Below, one piece after another: positions 37,517 to 49,244 of a DNA stretch of 64,000 bases; the first letter of the stretch is position 1; each line of letters begins with the position of its first letter. The position numbers and the translations under genes were made by a program. The stretch is from a virus (taxonomy: Duplodnaviria > Caudoviricetes): IMG/VR virus record IMGVR_UViG_3300035454_000688, positions 1 through 64,000 of that record; one strand, written 5' to 3'. Under the pieces are notes generated by a model that saw nothing but the letters and a program-made list of their open reading frames with translations, was not told the DNA's origin and made no database searches.

Positions 37517-38122
37517 TTATGTTTCGTTCTTGTATACGTCTGCTGCAGCACTTATCGCCGCCTCTGCTTTATCGACCGAAGCAATAAATGCATCGGGCGA
37601 GGATGTGTCGATTTTGTCAATAGTGTTTCCAGCATCGATTATAGCTAGAAGCCCTGCTTGCGAGCCCTCGATCTCTTGTAGTGCGCTGTTCACCAAGTTG
37701 TTTACTTCACCCTTTATTTGATTAAGAGTTTCGTCTTTGATTTCAATAGCACACTGAGGGAGACTCTTTGAGGCTTCTTCGATAGCTGCAATTACATTAA
37801 GGATAGCTCCAGCAAGTTTAATTAACTTCTTGGTGTACTTAATATGAGCCTGTAGCTGAGGTGTGACCAATCCTGTAACGAACTTAGATATCCACTTAAC
37901 AATCTCGACAGGGTTAGGTCCTGGCAATTGAAGTATTGGCAATATCTTCGCAAGCAGTTCCTTTTGTTCATCTTGAATATCTTTGAATAGGTCTTGAATG
38001 CTACCAAGATGCTCTTCAATAACCAGCTTTATAACTTCACAGTCAGAGTTATAACGAATCTGATCAGCCAGTTCGTTAATATGTCTTGTGTTGATGTCTA
38101 GTTCTTTTGCTGATACTCCCAT
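37517..38122 (-). CDS. alpha-helical hypothetical protein between gp5 and gp25
   Basis: 201-aa ORF co-oriented in baseplate operon. Confidence 0.65.
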   Translation of the reverse strand: MGVSAKELDINTRHINELADQIRYNSDCEVIKLVIEEHLGSIQDLFKDIQDEQKELLAKILPILQLPGPNPVEIVKWISKFVTGLVTPQLQAHIKYTKKLIKLAGAILNVIAAIEEASKSLPQCAIEIKDETLNQIKGEVNNLVNSALQEIEGSQAGLLAIIDAGNTIDKIDTSSPDAFIASVDKAEAAISAAADVYKNET

Positions 38123-38132
38123 AATATGTTCC

Positions 38133-38939
38133 TTAAGATATGTTTACAACAACGCCATTGAGCACTTCAACGACCTTGCCTGTAGGTGTTGTGAATGTTC
38201 CCGATACACCAACTGCAGAAGAGATAGCGCCCTTGACCATTAAACTACCTTCTGTGATAGTAACGCCACCAGGAGCTCCCATCTTGATGCCTTTGCGAGC
38301 TGCAATAGTCACATTGTTTTCAGAAACAATATCAACATCGCCCTTGGCATAGACTGTCTTCACTCCACCAACAACATCAATAGAATCAGATGGAGCCTTA
38401 ATGACCATACGACCATCATTATTTATTTCAATATATGCACCAGAGCTGTGATAGATATTGATGCGGGCGTTCTCAGGAGTGTCATCCAACTCAATGACAT
38501 GACCACCCTTAGTAGTGATCGTTCTGTTATATGGATACTGAGCGGCGTATGCAGAGGCTGGTTCTGGTCCTAGTATATCTCTTGAGATTGTGTTCTTGCC
38601 TCTATGGAGCCAGGAAAGAGAGTGTCTATTATTATCATTACCAGGAATAGTAGGAAAGGATCCTAGGATCATTGGCATCTGCTTCTCGTTGCCATCCATA
38701 TAAAAGCCAACGACACGAGATCCAACAGCAAGGTTAGGAGTATCCCCTACTCCATCAACACAAGCAGAACTTGAAGGCATCATGACATGAGCCCAATCCA
38801 TGTCTCCTGTCTCTACACCCTCATCATGTTCGTTTATGATACGAACCTTGGCTCGACCAAGTAGCATAGGATCCTGAATATCTTCGACCACACCGAGCCA
38901 CCAGCGGAAGCCTTCTTCGCCCATTTGTTGCGTAGTCAT
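38133..38939 (-). CDS. gp5: baseplate spike gp5 (OB-fold N-terminus, no lysozyme domain)
   Basis: FRWWLGVVEDIQDP..LGRAKVRI; GSRVVGFYMDG..QMPMILG; YPYNRTITTKGGHVIELDDTP. Confidence 0.88.
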   Translation of the reverse strand: MTTQQMGEEGFRWWLGVVEDIQDPMLLGRAKVRIINEHDEGVETGDMDWAHVMMPSSSACVDGVGDTPNLAVGSRVVGFYMDGNEKQMPMILGSFPTIPGNDNNRHSLSWLHRGKNTISRDILGPEPASAYAAQYPYNRTITTKGGHVIELDDTPENARINIYHSSGAYIEINNDGRMVIKAPSDSIDVVGGVKTVYAKGDVDIVSENNVTIAARKGIKMGAPGGVTITEGSLMVKGAISSAVGVSGTFTTPTGKVVEVLNGVVVNIS

Positions 38940-41145: not shown

Positions 41146-42107
41146 GTGTCGCTTGCTCCATCTGTAGAGCTACTGTCGCTCGATCCACCGGTGAGTCCTG
41201 TCTGAACATTTTCAATAAGGCCTCCGACGAATTCGGTCCCCTTGGCCCAAAGGTCGACAGATCCACCCCCATTCTTTCCACCGAAGTCATTCGAAAGGAA
41301 GTATTCGATTTCCTTGAAGTTAATTGAAAGCTGAACAACTACAGGCTCGTTATTGAAGCCGGAGAAGAACGCCGGCGCGCTTCCTGCTGTATAATTAACG
41401 TTGACAGAAGACATGAATGCGCGCTTCATTCTAATGATTGAGTTTTCGCTCCATCCGAAGTCACCGCCACCGCCATTGTCCCAAGGATAGAAGTTCACTT
41501 GGCAGAGATATGGATAGTTAAGAATGGCTGCAGAGTCCGTCACCTGATTGCCGGGGAGAGCTCTCATCTTTAGATGGTTAATGAGACTACGAATCTTTCT
41601 ACTGTCTGATTCGTTGGTAGGAAGCAGCGTCCACGTAAGGCTCATTTCTCTGAGCTGTGGACCCTGGAAGGCGATTGCAGGGTTGGGGTTAGGTGCAACG
41701 CCCATTGTTTGCTGAATAGCAGATGCAAAAGAATCAGCGTTCTCTGAGACAACACTTCCAGCAACGCTGGCAAGCATACCAACACCGAAGCTAGTTGCTG
41801 TGCCACCCGCTTCTGAAAGACTTGCTCCTAGCGCTTGAGGAACGGCTGCAGCAGAGCGAAGCCCCTGAGCCATTAGACCGGATCCTATATCATCATTTAG
41901 CACATCCCCAACCAGCTTCATGTCGATATTATTATATGCAACAGCAGTATCATCTCTCAATTCTGCAGGAAGTGGAAGACGGATGATCTTGTCTAGTACG
42001 AATTGGGGTTCGTCGAAAGGCTCGGGTCTGCTATACTCCATAAGACTGAGCGTGCAGTAGTACTTTGCAGTATCGAGAATTCCATATGCTTGGAGTGTTT
42101 CTGACAT
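41142..42107 (-). CDS. gp48: baseplate tail tube cap gp48
   Basis: IRLPLP; NPNPAIAFQGPQLREMSLTW; LSINFKEIE. Confidence 0.78.
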   Translation of the reverse strand: MSETLQAYGILDTAKYYCTLSLMEYSRPEPFDEPQFVLDKIIRLPLPAELRDDTAVAYNNIDMKLVGDVLNDDIGSGLMAQGLRSAAAVPQALGASLSEAGGTATSFGVGMLASVAGSVVSENADSFASAIQQTMGVAPNPNPAIAFQGPQLREMSLTWTLLPTNESDSRKIRSLINHLKMRALPGNQVTDSAAILNYPYLCQVNFYPWDNGGGGDFGWSENSIIRMKRAFMSSVNVNYTAGSAPAFFSGFNNEPVVVQLSINFKEIEYFLSNDFGGKNGGGSVDLWAKGTEFVGGLIENVQTGLTGGSSDSSSTDGASDT

Positions 42108-42502
42108 TAGATTATAGCATCCAGAATCATGCTAGCGTTTCTTTTCTTAGCAGCAATCTTGGTTGATGGGTTAATATCTGTCAGATACGTATCGACGTTC
42201 TCCAGACCTCTTCTTCTCAGCTTCTTGAGGTCAGCACCAGCTACACGAGCAGGATCCTTACCGGCAAGAGCATAGAACATATCCGAGCCCTGGTTCACAA
42301 TAGAGTCTGTCTTTTGTGAGGAGAATGCAGAGATCGAATCGAATGACGCGCCCACGTTAAAAAGCGACTGAGCTGTAGATGAGGCAGAAGAAAGCAAACT
42401 TATTGGTAGCTTTGATGTAGCTTTAGATACGATATTATCTAGTAATTTGCCTTCTACCGACTTTGCCGCCGACTTTACAAAACTGTTGACGTTAAAAGCC
42501 AT
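42107..42502 (-). CDS. hypothetical protein
   Basis: start refined to MAFNVNS (42502), downstream of the promoter region. Confidence 0.6.
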   Translation of the reverse strand: MAFNVNSFVKSAAKSVEGKLLDNIVSKATSKLPISLLSSASSTAQSLFNVGASFDSISAFSSQKTDSIVNQGSDMFYALAGKDPARVAGADLKKLRRRGLENVDTYLTDINPSTKIAAKKRNASMILDAII

Positions 42503-42522
42503 TCTGGTGTTCCTGTTTTTGT

Positions 42523-42538
42523 TATAAATATATTTATG
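42523..42538. promoter_or_regulatory. divergent late promoters
   Basis: TATAAATA on plus at 42523-42530; CATAAATA on minus at 42538-42531. Confidence 0.6.
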
Positions 42539-42991
42539 GCGCATAAAGGTACGTTCAGAGCTCAGAACCCTAAAAAGTACAAGGGGGACGCCTCAAAGAT
42601 TATTTATAGGAGTTCGTGGGAGCTCAGGCTCATGATGCATCTGGATGCACATCCAGATGTTATAGAATGGTCCTCGGAGGAAGTGGTTATACCATATGTT
42701 TCTCCGATCGATCGCAAGCGTCATAGATACTTTGTTGATTTCTTCGTGAAGAAAAAAGGAAGAGATGGTAAGCACGAAAGTGTGCTTATCGAGGTCAAGC
42801 CAAAGGCACAGACCACTCCTCCTGATGTGAAACTTACTCTGAAAGGCCAGAAGCCTACTCGGAGATATATTAACGAAGTGATGACGTGGGGAGTCAACTC
42901 AGCAAAGTGGGCTGCCGCAGAAGATTATTGTAAAGACAGAGGCTGGAAGTTTATTATTATGACCGAGCACGAGTTAGGGATCAAGTTTTAG
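42536..42991 (+). CDS. gp4: head completion protein gp4 (TnsA-like endonuclease fold)
   Basis: NPKKYKGD..IIYRSSWE; WSSEEVVIPY; HRYFVDF; NSAKWAAA...GWKFIIMTE. Confidence 0.9.
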   Translation: MAHKGTFRAQNPKKYKGDASKIIYRSSWELRLMMHLDAHPDVIEWSSEEVVIPYVSPIDRKRHRYFVDFFVKKKGRDGKHESVLIEVKPKAQTTPPDVKLTLKGQKPTRRYINEVMTWGVNSAKWAAAEDYCKDRGWKFIIMTEHELGIKF

Positions 42992-43587: not shown

Positions 43588-44289
43588 ATGTTTCAGATTT
43601 CTAATTTCCAGGCAAGTCTAGATAAGAGTGGGGTAATGAGAACCAATAGGTTCATCGCCCACTTCAATCTTCCCGACTACCTAAGAGATAACAAAGAGCT
43701 TTATGGCTACGGAGATGCTCTTGTGTCTCTTAGATGCCAGGCAGCACAGATTCCAGGCATTACGTTAAACACTATCGATCAGCCAAGAATTGGTATTGGT
43801 CCCGTAGAAAACGTTGCTAGCAACCTTACCATCGACGACATCACTCTGACGTTCCTTGTAGATGCTCAATCAAAGATCCATAATCTGTTCTATGATTGGT
43901 TCAATACAATTGTGAACTTCCAGGGATCGAAGGGTCAGTCAGCACTCTATAAGTCCTACAACCTCGGCAGACAGACATCTGCAGCATATGAGGTGGGCTA
44001 TAAGGATCAGTACACCACAGACCTTCTAATCACTGTATACGATGGTGTGACTCCGTCCGGCACTTCTGCGAGTGGTCAAGCCACTCCTACTATTGCAGAA
44101 GGCAATGTTCCTATCATGAACATCAGAGCATTCAAGGCATTTCCAAAGACATTGCCTTCTATTGATATGGACTGGAATTCGAATGATGAATTGGTGAAGA
44201 TGTCTGTTCCCTTCTCTATTACTGACTTCGAAGTATCATATCCAGCTAATAAAACACAACCTTACCGTCAATCCCAAGACTTTTTATAA
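43588..44289 (+). CDS. gp54: tail tube initiator gp54 / gp19-like protein
   Basis: RTNRFIAHF; LRCQAAQIPG; ITLTFLVD; FYDWFN; FPK...DMDW. Confidence 0.7.
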   Translation: MFQISNFQASLDKSGVMRTNRFIAHFNLPDYLRDNKELYGYGDALVSLRCQAAQIPGITLNTIDQPRIGIGPVENVASNLTIDDITLTFLVDAQSKIHNLFYDWFNTIVNFQGSKGQSALYKSYNLGRQTSAAYEVGYKDQYTTDLLITVYDGVTPSGTSASGQATPTIAEGNVPIMNIRAFKAFPKTLPSIDMDWNSNDELVKMSVPFSITDFEVSYPANKTQPYRQSQDFL

Positions 44290-44312: not shown

Positions 44313-45023
44313 ATGGCACTACCTAAAATTGATAAACCCCTTTTTGATATTGAGGTTCCTTCGCAGGGAAAGAGTATCAAATGCCGTCCGTTTGTTGTTA
44401 AGGAAGAGAAGATTCTTCTGACAGCTCAACAGGCAGGACAAGAGAAAGACATTATCCTTGCTATCAAGCAGGTGCTAGTCAACTGTATTCAGGATCCTTC
44501 GTTTGATGTGAATACTCTGACCACATTCGATCTTGAGCACATGTTCTTGAAGCTGCGTGCAAGATCGGTTAATAACATCATCGAAGTGTCTTATCGTGAC
44601 AATGAAGATGATAAGGTATATGACTTTAAGATCGATCTCGATGAAGTAGAGATGATGAAAGCCAAGGAAGTCAACAACAAAATCATGGTTACCGACGATG
44701 TTGGTATCATCATGAAGTTTCCTTCGGTCACAATGCTCGAAGGTGTTCCAGGCGACATCACTTCCACAGATCTTGTAGACTACCTTGTGCGTTCGTGTAT
44801 CGAGCAGATTTTCGATGCAGACGAAGTATATCTTGCATCCGAGTCTACTGATGCAGAGCTCAACGAGTTCATCGATAGTCTAGACGTGGAGTCGTTCAAC
44901 AAGATTCGTGAGTTCTTTGACTCACTTCCTTCGTTATATCATAAGCTAGAATACACAAACTCATTGGGCAATACAAGATCTATTGAGCTCACAACGTTAA
45001 GTGATTTTTTTACCTGGGGCTGA
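44313..45023 (+). CDS. gp26: baseplate hub assembly protein gp26
   Basis: MALPKIDKP; RPFVVKEEKILL; FDLEHMFLKLRARSV; ends LSDFFTWG. Confidence 0.88.
   Translation: MALPKIDKPLFDIEVPSQGKSIKCRPFVVKEEKILLTAQQAGQEKDIILAIKQVLVNCIQDPSFDVNTLTTFDLEHMFLKLRARSVNNIIEVSYRDNEDDKVYDFKIDLDEVEMMKAKEVNNKIMVTDDVGIIMKFPSVTMLEGVPGDITSTDLVDYLVRSCIEQIFDADEVYLASESTDAELNEFIDSLDVESFNKIREFFDSLPSLYHKLEYTNSLGNTRSIELTTLSDFFTWG
45005..45011 (+). promoter_or_regulatory. candidate -1 ribosomal frameshift heptamer T TTT TTT
   Basis: seven Ts in X XXY YYZ register relative to gp26 codons; the -1 frame is closed immediately upstream by TGA at 45002-45004. Confidence 0.7.
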
Positions 45024-45193
45024 GTCACAATACACTAGCGAATTATTACACAACAATATTCGCTATGGCTCAGCATCATAACTATTCAGTCACTGAATTG
45101 GAAGATATGATGCCCTACGAGCGTGATCTGTATGTTGATATGTTACTGAGCTTCCTTGAAAAACAAAAACAAGAGATGGAAAAGAATAAGTAA
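45005..45193 (+). CDS. gp51: gp51-like hub assembly domain in the -1 frame of gp26 (predicted frameshift extension)
   Basis: frame open 45005-45190: FFYLGLSHNTLANYYTTIFAMAQHHNYSVTELEDMMPYERDLYVDMLLSFLEKQK; absent from ORF track; first ATG only at 45065. Confidence 0.75.
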   Translation, partial: FFYLGLSHNTLANYYTTIFAMAQHHNYSVTELEDMMPYERDLYVDMLLSFLEKQKQEMEKNK

Positions 45194-45195
45194 CA

Positions 45196-47082
45196 ATGGC
45201 CGGTCTAGGTAAATTCTTCTCTAAGACAAAGACGCGTTCTCTCGCGGCCAGTCGTGCTGGCTCTAAGGTAGGTAAAGATACCACCACAAGAGCCACTGCT
45301 ACCAAGCGCATGAAGAGAATGGAACGGAAGAAGTTTGGCCGTGCAATGGCTACCGGTGCAATGCGCCGTATGGGTCTCAACGTAAGAGGCATCTCCAATA
45401 ACGCAAAGTCCCCTATAGGAAGACTGCTCCAATCACCTGCAGCACGTGCTATGTCGATGGGAACATTCGACATCACTCTTCCACCAATGGATGATGGATC
45501 GCGTGCTAGCGGCGTTAATAACCCGTCTATCAGCACTCTCAACGGCCAATTGAGTAGCATTGCTCAAACTGCTGCAAGACTGGGTGCTATCACACAGGAA
45601 CAGCAAGAAGCGCTGATCCGTCAAGCAAAGACGGCAGAGACTCAAGCAGCTCAGACTCAGCTGGAAGAACCAGATGCAACTCCAATCAGCGCTCCTGGTG
45701 CTGGTGGTGGTATCGATCCTGGTGTGAGTGCTACAGAGAAGCTCCTAGAGTCGATTGCCAAGCTCAAGGCTATTGTAGATGACAAGGTCAGAGAGCAACA
45801 GCAAAATAGCTTCGGCAATGTCTTTATCGAGTCGCTACTTGACAACCTCGGTCTAGGTGGCGTCAAGGAAGCAAGAGCCAATAGACGTAAGAGACCTCAG
45901 GTAAAAGAAGGTTTCATGTCTCGCGAAGGCAAGACTGGAACAGAATTCTATACTCAGGACGAACGTGGTAGGATCAAAGCAGCCAAGGCGGAAGATGCTC
46001 TTACTAACTTCAGGACCGTAGAGAAGACCGATAGCTTTAGACTGAACAAAGCTGCTGAGGCTCGTCAGGCTGAGGCTGTGCTCGGGAAGAAGGCTACATT
46101 CAGTGGCTCGAGTACGACAAACAAGATTGCCACATCTATCGGTAAAGGTGCAAAGAAGGCTACTGGAGCGGTCGGAACAGCGGGAGCTGCAACAGGCAAA
46201 GCCTCAAAAGCTATCATTGAGAAGGTCGCAGGACCTCTTGTAAAGAGTGCTGTGGCCAAGACGGCAATCAAGTCTATTCCTCTTGTAGGAGCGGCTGCAG
46301 GCGGCCTATTCGCTATTGGGAAGCTGTTACAAGGCGATGTGGTAGGTGCTGGTCTCGAGGCTGCATCTGGCCTTGGAGGTCCTCTCACAGCTATTCCTGC
46401 AATGGTTGCATCTCTTGCTCGCGATACCTATATGGGTGTATTTGGTATGGCTCCTGAGTCGGATCCATTCTTTGCAACGAAGATGTCACTAGTTACCGGT
46501 GTTCTCACTGGCCTTGTGACTTCCGCTCTCGCTAGACTGACTGGCGGTAGTGGCGAACAGCCTGCGGCTCAAGATGCTACAAAGGCTCCTGAGATTCCAT
46601 CAGAAGCTCCAAAGATTGCTCCTGTTCAAGCCAAGAAAGAAACTGCCCCGCCCCCATCTTCTCTTTCGGATAGTGGAGGAAGTGTAGATGCAGCATCTTC
46701 GGCTCAGGCAGATGCGGGAGGTGGCACATCAACTGCTCCTGCTCCTTCGCCCGAGCCAGCAGGATCGAGTGGAGCTGCCGCGGGTGCGCAATCACCAGCG
46801 GAACAAGCTCCTATCACAGGCCTCACTCCGGGAAGCTCCAAGCCTGTAGAACAGCCAGGAACACAATCTGGCGCTGCTATTGCGGCTGCATCAAGTGACT
46901 CATCAGCCCCTGAGTCTGCTCAGGGAGGTGGTGGTCAATCCATGCCAAGACCTTCTAATTCGCCTACAACAAAGGGCAGAGCGAAGGGTATGGGCAACGT
47001 TCCTGAGCCAACATATCTTGGTATGGGCGACATTGTTAAGCAATTATACTTCGGTGCAGTTGCGGGAGCAATGGCAGCATGA
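45196..47082 (+). CDS. tape-measure-like / hub protein (gp29 position)
   Basis: low complexity, helical; KSIPLVGAAAGGLFAIGKLLQGDVVGAGLEAASG segment; follows gp26/gp51. Confidence 0.6.
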   Translation: MAGLGKFFSKTKTRSLAASRAGSKVGKDTTTRATATKRMKRMERKKFGRAMATGAMRRMGLNVRGISNNAKSPIGRLLQSPAARAMSMGTFDITLPPMDDGSRASGVNNPSISTLNGQLSSIAQTAARLGAITQEQQEALIRQAKTAETQAAQTQLEEPDATPISAPGAGGGIDPGVSATEKLLESIAKLKAIVDDKVREQQQNSFGNVFIESLLDNLGLGGVKEARANRRKRPQVKEGFMSREGKTGTEFYTQDERGRIKAAKAEDALTNFRTVEKTDSFRLNKAAEARQAEAVLGKKATFSGSSTTNKIATSIGKGAKKATGAVGTAGAATGKASKAIIEKVAGPLVKSAVAKTAIKSIPLVGAAAGGLFAIGKLLQGDVVGAGLEAASGLGGPLTAIPAMVASLARDTYMGVFGMAPESDPFFATKMSLVTGVLTGLVTSALARLTGGSGEQPAAQDATKAPEIPSEAPKIAPVQAKKETAPPPSSLSDSGGSVDAASSAQADAGGGTSTAPAPSPEPAGSSGAAAGAQSPAEQAPITGLTPGSSKPVEQPGTQSGAAIAAASSDSSAPESAQGGGGQSMPRPSNSPTTKGRAKGMGNVPEPTYLGMGDIVKQLYFGAVAGAMAA

Positions 47083-49244
47083 GAATGGATAACGAGACAA
47101 GAGACGCTATCAAGTCGAAGTTTCTTCTAGGAGGATCTGAAGACCAGGTCATTCCGAAGCAAGATCTTGTCCAGATGTCATCTTCGCTCACGTCGATCGA
47201 GACATCGTTCAATCAGATGAAGGCCTATACGGGCAACATTCTTCGTGTTCAAGCAGCTATGCAAAAGGCTGCTATTGTTAGTATGAAAAAGGCCAAGTCT
47301 CCAATGGAGGCTCTGCAGGCTTTAGAAGGCGGCAACGAGCCATCTAATAGTGATCAGCTCACAACTGTATTCCCTCAACTCACACAGGTTATAGAACAGC
47401 TTCATAAGAGTCTCAACAAGCTAGACTTGTCGGGCGAAGCAGACGCTCCTAGTGACAAGGCAATGTCGTCTGTTGCTGGAGCTGTTCCAGCTCAACCTGT
47501 TATAGAGGATCCTCAGCAAGAAGTCAAGGCAGAACAGAAGACAAAAGCGAAGACTGCTGTAAAGAAGCAGAACGAAAGAACTGAGGCAGCTCGTAAGCCT
47601 GCTAAGCCTACTTCTGAGATCGCCAAGAAGAGTAGCGAAAAGACTACCAAGCCTCAGGCTACTAATAGGGCAAAGACCGAGACCAGAGCAGAGAAGCAAC
47701 TGACTCAAGCTGCTACGAGAGCTGCTGGACGAGGCAATGTTGGAGTCACTGCGGCATCCAAGGCTCAGCCTACTGGAAACATGGCGGGGGCTGGCTGGAC
47801 TTCTAAGCTATCTGGCTTCATTGGTAAGTCGGTAACAAACGTCAAGTCTTCGATTGCTGACTTCCTTGCTAACATAGGATCCATGCTCGGTATTGGTGGA
47901 GCTGCAGCTGTTGGCGGCGCTGCTGGTTATGCAGCTGGAAGTTTGTCTGCACCAGACGAAGGTGGATCTGCTCCTACTGGCGGCAAAGCTGGAGATATGG
48001 AAGCAGCTATCAACAAGGCTGGCATCAAAGACAACACCACCAAAGCTCAGATCATGGCGCAGACTGCGCACGAGTCTGGCAACTTCAAATACACCCAAGA
48101 GCTCGGCAACGCAAAGTATTTTGAAAAGTACAACGGCAGGAGAGATCTTGGCAACACCCAGCCAGGTGACGGTCCTAAGTATAGGGGTCGTGGCTTCCTA
48201 CAGGTCACGGGTAGAGCCAACTATGCAGAGATGTCGAAGCTGCTTGGGGTCGACTTTGTCAACAATCCAGAAGCACTTGCACAACCAAAATACGCAGCTG
48301 CATCTGCAATAGCATGGTTCCAGAAGAGATGGGGTCGATTCAAGAACTGGGGTGACACGAAGGCAGTTACAAAGGTCGTCAACGGCGGCTATAACGGTCT
48401 AGCAGACCGTTCATCAAAGTTTGCTCAATACTCTAAGCTCTATGGTAGCGGTGGCTCAGCAGGTGCTGCAAGCGCTCCTGGGGGTGGCGGTGGTGGAGGC
48501 GGCCCTGCTGGTAGGATGGCTCCTGGTGGTGCTGGTTTTAACGACAACGTAAAGGCTGTCGGTGGTAACATTAAGCAATATGCTAATCTTGGATCCAACG
48601 TCAACTACGAGGGTCTAAAGCCTACCATGAAGCGTAGGTTCACGGCAATGGCTGCTGAACACTATCAGAAGACTGGTAAGAAACTTCAGATCAACTCTGC
48701 CCTTAGATCGAGAGCTGATCAGGAAAGAATGTGGAAGAAGTATGGTCCTAAGAGAGCAGCTCCTCCAGGCAGATCCCTTCATGAATCTGGTGTGGCAATC
48801 GATGTCAACACCCCTGACGTTCAACGTCTCCAGAAGTTAGGTCTTCTCAAGAAGTACGGTTTCTGGCTTCCATACTTCCCTAAAGAGACATGGCACCTTG
48901 AGCCTGTAGAAGGTTCGAGAGTCAAGGGTCAACCCGACAACCCTTACCAGCCTGGAGCCCCTATTGCTCAGAAGGAAAAGGGTAAGGAAGTTGTTCAGGA
49001 CTCATCGGGTAAGAACAAGCAGATCACAGCTCCTAAGAAGCAGGTTGGTCCTGTAGCTACTGGTATGGCTATTCAGAGGAAGGTCGGGGACAAGACTGTG
49101 ATTCAGAACCAATCGGGACCTATTGTAGTGGGTGGTGGTAGCAATCCTATGAGCTACCTGACTGGAATGAAACCTGCAAAGGGTGCAACCCAGTATAACG
49201 TCAACACAGCTGACGATTACAAGATCTACTTCAACGCAGCATAA
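47079..49244 (+). CDS. hub/tape-measure-associated lysin with GH19 and M15 peptidase domains
   Basis: AQTAHESGNF...YRGRGFLQVTGRANY...VNGGYNGL (GH19); INSALRS...PPGRSLHESGVAIDV...ETWHLE (M15/VanY-like). Confidence 0.85.
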   Translation: MRMDNETRDAIKSKFLLGGSEDQVIPKQDLVQMSSSLTSIETSFNQMKAYTGNILRVQAAMQKAAIVSMKKAKSPMEALQALEGGNEPSNSDQLTTVFPQLTQVIEQLHKSLNKLDLSGEADAPSDKAMSSVAGAVPAQPVIEDPQQEVKAEQKTKAKTAVKKQNERTEAARKPAKPTSEIAKKSSEKTTKPQATNRAKTETRAEKQLTQAATRAAGRGNVGVTAASKAQPTGNMAGAGWTSKLSGFIGKSVTNVKSSIADFLANIGSMLGIGGAAAVGGAAGYAAGSLSAPDEGGSAPTGGKAGDMEAAINKAGIKDNTTKAQIMAQTAHESGNFKYTQELGNAKYFEKYNGRRDLGNTQPGDGPKYRGRGFLQVTGRANYAEMSKLLGVDFVNNPEALAQPKYAAASAIAWFQKRWGRFKNWGDTKAVTKVVNGGYNGLADRSSKFAQYSKLYGSGGSAGAASAPGGGGGGGGPAGRMAPGGAGFNDNVKAVGGNIKQYANLGSNVNYEGLKPTMKRRFTAMAAEHYQKTGKKLQINSALRSRADQERMWKKYGPKRAAPPGRSLHESGVAIDVNTPDVQRLQKLGLLKKYGFWLPYFPKETWHLEPVEGSRVKGQPDNPYQPGAPIAQKEKGKEVVQDSSGKNKQITAPKKQVGPVATGMAIQRKVGDKTVIQNQSGPIVVGGGSNPMSYLTGMKPAKGATQYNVNTADDYKIYFNAA

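Follow-up and report, generated by a model that had tools for sequence, protein, structure and literature searches.

A gp26-like gene of an uncultured T4-like phage with a conserved slippery heptamer and a gp51-like extension in the -1 frame

The locus described here raises the question of how a gp51-like domain comes to be encoded immediately behind a gp26-like gene, in another frame and with no start codon near its beginning. It lies in an uncultured T4-like phage known from the IMG/VR virus record IMGVR_UViG_3300035454_000688 (Duplodnaviria; Caudoviricetes), which is 76.5 kb long and estimated to be 41% complete. Positions 1-64,000 of this record are the stretch of DNA that was analysed, referred to below as the window, and all coordinates are given within it. 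The gp26-like gene (44313..45023, plus strand) encodes 236 amino acids (aa) and has a run of seven T's close to its stop codon. An earlier note, made from the sequence of the window, had proposed that a programmed -1 frameshift at this run yields both a 236-aa gp26 and a gp26-51 fusion of about 293 aa. Our analysis leads to a similar view, in which the gp26-like gene probably encodes a tail assembly chaperone (TAC) that is made in two forms by a ribosomal -1 slip on the T-rich heptamer, a reading drawn from comparison of sequences.

The gp26-like gene and the frame behind it

The product of the 0 frame is the short form (TAC-N). It matches PF12322 (T4_baseplate) over residues 12-233 with a score of 181.9 bits against a cut-off of 24.5, and phrog_150 over profile positions 5-233 with an E of 3.3e-57. 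In a Pfam scan of the product at E <= 0.01 PF12322 was the only family found, and no sequence similarity to lambda G or the Pfam TAC families was detected, which leaves room for a distant relationship. The gene has a Shine-Dalgarno sequence, GGAG, 8 nucleotides (nt) upstream of its ATG.

The 3' end of the gene reads AGT GAT TTT TTT ACC TGG GGC TGA. Within it the T7 run forms the slippery heptamer T_TTT_TTT (45005..45011, plus strand), which has the canonical X_XXY_YYZ form in phase with the gp26 frame, and the 0-frame stop TGA (45021..45023, plus strand) lies 9 nt past it. Directly before the heptamer the -1 frame is closed by another TGA (45002..45004, plus strand); from there it is open over 45005..45193, reads FFYLGLSHNTLANYY... 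and ends with the stop TAA at 45191-45193. A slip on the heptamer would join 233 residues of the 0 frame to 60 of the -1 frame to give 293 aa, which agrees with the two product sizes first proposed, and the slip site and the -1 overlap on which they depend are kept in relatives. The first ATG, GTG or TTG of the -1 frame is the ATG at 45065. The earlier note had described these elements, from the 3' end of gp26 and the T7 run to the upstream TGA, the lack of an ATG before 45065 and the -1 reading to 45193, with all positions and residues correct.

The part of the -1 frame behind the heptamer (45011..45193, plus strand; 60 codons and the TAA) would give the 293-aa long form its gp51-like C-terminal domain. 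Read from 45005, the frame gives a 62-aa peptide that matches phrog_634 (gp51, 'baseplate hub assembly catalyst') over profile positions 56-115 with an E of 1.8e-23, and the 42 aa that start at ATG 45065 match it over positions 75-115 only, with an E of 6.5e-15. The 62-aa peptide also falls on positions 231-280 of the 282 positions of phrog_150, and BLASTP aligns it with residues 223-249 of T4 gp51 (E 2e-4). The -1 reading is not due to chance, because the peptide matches phrog_634 as strongly as it does and because the same arrangement is present in 88 of 88 related loci. The 76.5-kb record, 41% complete, contains one PF12322 match, and not the two paralogs that characterize the T4 type; the long form is reachable here only via recoding.

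Conservation in relatives and counterparts in T4 and lambda

The lineage is a divergent one: no IMG/VR relative is more than 57% identical to it, and identity to cyanophages is about 42%. A blastn search of the locus against phage genomes gave no match, and relatives were identified by protein-level searches. The 88 loci compared comprise 80 from IMG/VR, found with the gp26 profile at 35-57% identity, and those of eight GenBank phages: the cyanophages S-WAM2, S-SRM01 and metaG-MbCM1, Sinorhizobium phiM12, the Methylophilales phage Melnitz, the KVP40-like Vibrio phage D482, Aeromonas AS-sw and Ralstonia RSP15. From these loci 64 representatives with less than 70% identity were selected, 63 of which were used to calculate the identity of the extension and to count residues at the Met position.

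A T_TTT_TTY heptamer in phase near the gp26 stop is found at every one of the 88 loci (TTTTTTT in 46 and TTTTTTC in 42), and the 0-frame stop lies 0-9 nt past it in 87. All 88 also continue in the -1 frame with the pattern FF(Y/R)..L.H..L..YY...F.L.QHHKYS..E.E..P.ER..Y, so that the conservation of heptamer and overlap, which had been put forward as a check on the frameshift, extends to all relatives compared. In 18 of the 88, as in the window, the heptamer is the very point at which the -1 frame becomes open. The T's themselves are fixed at synonymous positions. All 64 representatives have T as the wobble base of the codon preceding FF, against a background of 0.69, and TTT as the first Phe codon, against a background of 0.67.

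Comparison with T4 indicates what the two products correspond to. Genes 26 and 51 of T4 are divergently transcribed neighbours, and the earlier note took them to be separate genes. There are indeed two genes in T4, but what this overlooked is that gp51 is T4's own long form and not an unrelated gene. The two T4 proteins are paralogs, because each of them gives a full-length match to PF12322 (215.6 bits for gp26 and 177.5 bits for gp51). On phrog_150 T4 gp26 (208 aa) covers positions 14-235 and T4 gp51 (249 aa) positions 13-280, and the combined 0-frame and -1-frame product of the window is colinear with T4 gp51 across the junction (...YSLNSISKMIPAER...), including the segment ...YS....MIP.ER. 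Since the profile coverage and the colinear alignment agree, the short form can be equated with T4 gp26 and the frameshift product with T4 gp51. The short forms have similar C-terminal ends as well, which are ...LSDFF followed by three residues in the window and ...GLKEFFELL in T4 gp26. T4 gp51 is therefore a gp26 paralog that carries the C-terminal tail, and the proposal that short 'gp51' annotations in T4-like phages are frameshift extensions holds.

The window uses one gene and recoding, whereas T4 uses two divergent paralogous genes and has lost the T run. As a negative control we considered seven Straboviridae with both genes, namely T4, VR7, an Acinetobacter phage, the RB49-like KFS-EC, 44RR, Pm5461 and RB16. 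An in-phase T6 was found at the end of gene 26 in none of the seven, the T4 sequence being GAG TTC TTT. Because none of these two-gene phages keeps the run, its retention is confined to phages that need it for their long form, and constraint on the protein cannot by itself account for it. In RB16 a single strand carries the genes in the order 48, 54, 51, 26, 25, which puts gene 26 right behind gene 51; this looks like a tandem duplicate, which could be nearer to the duplication event than the divergent pair of T4.

For structural comparison the short form and the 62-aa extension were modelled as two separate parts with AlphaFold2. The short-form model, built on an alignment of 48 sequences, has a predicted local distance difference test score (pLDDT) of 86.5 and a predicted template modelling score (pTM) of 0.77. 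In an exhaustive VIA-align search of 48,161 chains the top three matches were 3fgx_B (Z 8.2, root mean square deviation 3.4 over 86 residues), 3klu_A (Z 6.6) and 2ob9_B (Z 6.5), all on residues 1-95. Structures 3fgx, 3klu and 2ob9 (HK97 gp13) are the three TAC structures listed in PMC9603447, and the modelled N-terminal domain appears to have the TAC ('spiral') fold. The extension is predicted to be all-helical, with a pLDDT of 83. Against PDB sequences, profiles of gp26 and the extension matched at chance level only. The second domain of the model (residues ~87-230) has weak matches to Hsp40/DnaJ C-terminal peptide-binding or dimerisation domains (2q2g, 7zhs, 3agz and 1nlt; Z 3.2-4.0 over 46-49 residues), which are too weak to interpret from the model, though curious for a chaperone.

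The arrangement resembles lambda gpG/gpGT and P2 E/E+E' in having a second open reading frame (ORF) without its own start, in the location of the gene, which has a tube-fold gene ahead of it and a long putative tape measure gene behind it, and in the predicted TAC fold of the N-terminal domain. It differs from lambda gpG/gpGT in that the protein of the window is approximately twice as long, has an extra domain at residues ~87-230 and gains an extension of only 60 aa. A further difference is that its T4 homologs have been described as hub assembly factors; gp26 and gp51 are listed as hub assembly chaperones by Leiman et al. 2010 (PMC3004832). That genes for tail assembly chaperones share a conserved -1 frameshift (Levin 1993; Xu, Hendrix and Duda 2004) is summarised in PMC5009743. 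By analogy with lambda G/GT as summarised there, the N-terminal domain would coat the tape measure protein, and the helical C-terminal domain would recruit a tube or hub partner.

A connection between the T4 hub chaperones and the G/GT paradigm had been suggested for this locus. The TAC-fold N-terminal domain backs the analogy with lambda, but the novelty that was implied is wrong, since the connection was published in 2022. According to PMC10885494 and PMC12846349, Vladimirov, Gautam and Davidson (Virology 2022;566:9-15; PMID 34826709) identified gp26 (TAC-N) and gp51 (TAC-NC) as the TACs of T4-like phages. Of that work PMC10885494 states that, in place of a frameshift, certain T4-like phages have one short gene plus a long gene for the fusion, and PMC12846349 refers to it for -1 slip signals of the poly-T type in the TAC-N genes of T4-like phages. 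The TACs described there, as far as these two citing papers report them, are like the locus in the window in family (PF12322 and phrog_150/634), in forming a short/long pair and in their poly-T slip sites. Our alignments and the two-gene control independently reproduce both of the statements so attributed. One GenBank record already names a gp51 homolog 'tape measure protein assembly chaperone'.

Routes to the long form

If the slip is ribosomal, most ribosomes would stop at TGA 45021 and release the short form of 236 aa, which corresponds to T4 gp26 and lambda gpG. Some would slip back one base while decoding UUU-UUU on U_UUU_UUU (45005-45011) and would then read 60 more codons in the -1 frame, and their product would be the long form of 293 aa, corresponding to T4 gp51 and lambda gpGT. 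A stem-loop beginning 7 nt downstream could stimulate the slip. This candidate stimulatory structure (45019..45074, plus strand) has an outer helix of 9 bp (45019-45027/45066-45074), the start of which is 7 nt past the heptamer, and an inner helix (45036-45043/45058-45065). The fold of 45005-45085 has a minimum free energy (MFE) of -22.8 kcal/mol and a z of -5.56, with 0/200 shuffles equally stable. When the outer helix was placed on 28 clade members 90.5% of cells were paired and 7/9 pairs showed changes on both sides; 0/500 shuffles reached the real values, and slid controls gave 22-37%. Structure 3' of the slip site is the expected kind of ribosomal frameshift stimulator, and the phase-locked heptamer together with the predicted 3' structure favours ribosomal -1 frameshifting.

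The cyanophage-type clade has a different candidate. GAGG or AGGA (also GGAGG) is found 10-12 nt 5' of the heptamer in 32/64 representatives, which belong to this clade, and the clade of the window is without it. A Shine-Dalgarno-like element upstream at such a spacing is a stimulator of the -1 frameshift in dnaX. The element may be incidental, because it is encoded by a conserved Glu-Gly. A local hairpin in S-WAM2-type cyanophages (z ~ -3.6 with mononucleotide shuffles) was considered and dropped, as its register is not conserved in the alignment.

Several observations weigh against a ribosomal slip in a tail assembly chaperone gene. RNAalifold found no consensus structure in two clade alignments, so that the case for the helix depends on folding one sequence and on counting pairs in a structure of our own choosing. 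The arms of the stem lie in conserved codons, the helix was taken from the fold of the window itself, and it is absent from the cyanophage-type clade. The Z scores of 6.5-8.2 that suggest the TAC fold are middling, and a Foldseek search of the short-form model against the PDB returned nothing at E <= 0.001. The 628-aa product of the next gene is plausible as a tape measure protein from its position, its composition and a weak family that it shares, and its identity as such is weak. Finally, the junction is a T7 homopolymer.

The last of these points bears on the alternative that fares best, in which the long form is real but is produced by transcriptional slippage, RNA polymerase adding an extra U so that a subset of mRNAs carries the fusion in one frame. 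Runs of T7 or T8 are present at 46/88 loci, and the comparative evidence fits this explanation equally well because the protein outcome is identical. Against it, the run varies from T6 (42 loci) through T7 (41) to T8 (5), always beginning at the same position within the codon, and the T6 of 42/88 loci is a short run for a polymerase to slip on efficiently. In addition the run is always in X_XXY_YYZ phase and never exceeds T8. The stable 3' stem at canonical frameshift spacing in the window, and the GAGG/AGGA 10-12 nt upstream in half of the representatives, point the same way, both being confounded by coding constraints. Taken together, we regard transcriptional slippage as rather unlikely and a ribosomal slip as the probable route.

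It could also be that no fusion is made and that a free, short gp51 is translated from ATG 45065 (42 aa) or from a non-canonical start such as CTG 45020. The internal ATG (45065..45067, plus strand) exists, is reported by ORF finders and is the one that gene callers use for a 42-aa 'gp51', and the GenBank relatives carry annotated 'gp51' genes of 47-59 aa. This start has little to recommend it, however. None of GGAG, GAGG and AGGA occurs in the 20 nt upstream of ATG 45065, and the codon is base-paired within the predicted -22.8 kcal/mol stem-loop. The residue at this position is Leu in 48/63 relatives, and an ATG within 9 codons of the heptamer is present in 10/64 representatives, with a Shine-Dalgarno sequence before 0 of those 10. 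The second ORF is thus one without a conserved start of its own among the relatives. Homology to gp51 and strong conservation also reach 20 residues upstream of the Met, up to the heptamer, the mean pairwise identity among the 63 representatives being 0.48 for these 20 residues, compared with 0.295 for the last 25 of the gp26 part and 0.56 for the core after the Met. A free gp51 would moreover leave unexplained both the frozen synonymous T's and the loss of the T's where gp51 is a full-length gene. Independent initiation, which had been named as an outcome that would speak against the frameshift, is consequently very unlikely.

That the two frames are an artefact, either a homopolymer miscall (a true T8) concealing a plain 293-aa ORF or a gene decaying into a pseudogene, deserves next to no weight. 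In its favour, homopolymers are error-prone and the source is a metagenomic contig. Against it, the two-frame layout is found in 88/88 independent assemblies, finished genomes of cultured phages included, and whether a run has six, seven or eight T's, the second frame is in every case the -1 frame.

A ribosomal slip may also be placed in an evolutionary sequence, which we put forward tentatively, as possible and not as the expected course of events. There would have been one ancient slip site with lineage-specific tuning, by a 3' stem-loop that also hides the internal ATG in the clade of the window and by the upstream GAGG/AGGA in the cyanophage-type clade, and in the T-even lineage gene duplication would have replaced recoding.

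Gene setting and significance

On both sides of the locus lie morphogenesis genes of the T4 type. The flanking minus-strand genes are baseplate wedge genes, a gp25-like gene, a short gp5-like gene and gp48 (tail tube cap), and those on the plus strand encode gp4 (head completion), gp2 (DNA end protector) and a tube-fold protein. The gene order runs from the tube-fold gene through the chaperone gene to genes for a 628-aa Ala/Gly-rich protein and a 721-aa protein with GH19 and VanY domains. Directly upstream of the gp26-like gene, the tail-tube-fold protein (gp54/gp19-like; 43588..44289, plus strand) matches phrog_45 (tail tube, E 2.7e-32) and PF23849 (Phage_TTP_2). A tube-like gene occupies the equivalent position in phiM12, S-SRM01, D482 and AS-sw, and in RB16 gp54 is found there.

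The 628-aa Ala/Gly-rich protein (45196..47082, plus strand) is a putative tape measure protein by position only, with phrog_23178 (E 7.7e-7) as its sole match. The earlier note had called this gene tape-measure-like; its position and composition agree with that, as does phrog_23178, a weak family that it has in common with the S-WAM2 protein at the equivalent position, but no similarity to T4 gp29, to the phiM12 candidate or to tape-measure PHROGs was detected in searches to E <= 10. The ESM Atlas offered no more than a lead of 0.87, to a Gly-zipper cluster. The positional counterparts in D482, phiM12, Melnitz and S-WAM2 match tape-measure PHROGs, with E values from 2.5e-10 to 7e-4.

The 721-aa protein (47079-49244, plus strand) follows the putative tape measure gene directly, with an ATGA start/stop overlap. 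It combines a low-complexity N-terminus of ~300 aa with a GH19 chitinase-like lysozyme domain at ~306-457 (phrog_181, E 1e-46) and a VanY D-Ala-D-Ala carboxypeptidase domain at 513-596, and may be a tail-associated muralytic protein. The gp5-like homolog of the baseplate hub and tail lysozyme (38133-38939, minus strand) is only 267 aa long. It probably does not contain the lysozyme domain of T4 gp5, because its gp5-family matches fall in two separate stretches, one N-terminal and one later. The muralytic activity may have moved from the gp5-like homolog to the 721-aa protein. Two further ORFs inside the baseplate and tail block, at 37517-38122 (minus strand, 200 aa) and 42107-42544 (minus strand, 144 aa), have no PHROG match at E <= 0.001.

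The prior literature, as the citing papers PMC10885494 and PMC12846349 represent it, reaches the same reading of gp26 and gp51 that is given here. The phenomenon is known, and the window contributes a new, unannotated member from an uncultured lineage. Because the biology was already published in 2022, the practical value of the present observation is in the correction of annotations. In this respect, 0/8 of the inspected GenBank records of frameshift-type relatives (KU686211, NC_070963, KF381361, MZ577098, OZ195769, NC_048674, NC_019443 and LC121084) annotate a joined coding sequence. In these records gp51 is either a 47-59-aa ORF that begins at an internal Met or is unannotated.

Short 'gp51' ORFs of this kind were described by Sullivan et al. 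2010 (PMC3037559), who reported that gp51 of cyanophages and marine vibriophages has ~20% of the length of other gp51 proteins, with the first ~200 residues missing; the cause was left unexplained, and a frameshift was not proposed. A frameshift accounts for the missing ~200 residues, which would be supplied by the gp26 part, and for this phage it resolves the puzzle of the ~20%-length 'gp51'. More generally, T4-like phages would obey the short/long tail-chaperone rule that is general among long-tailed phages.

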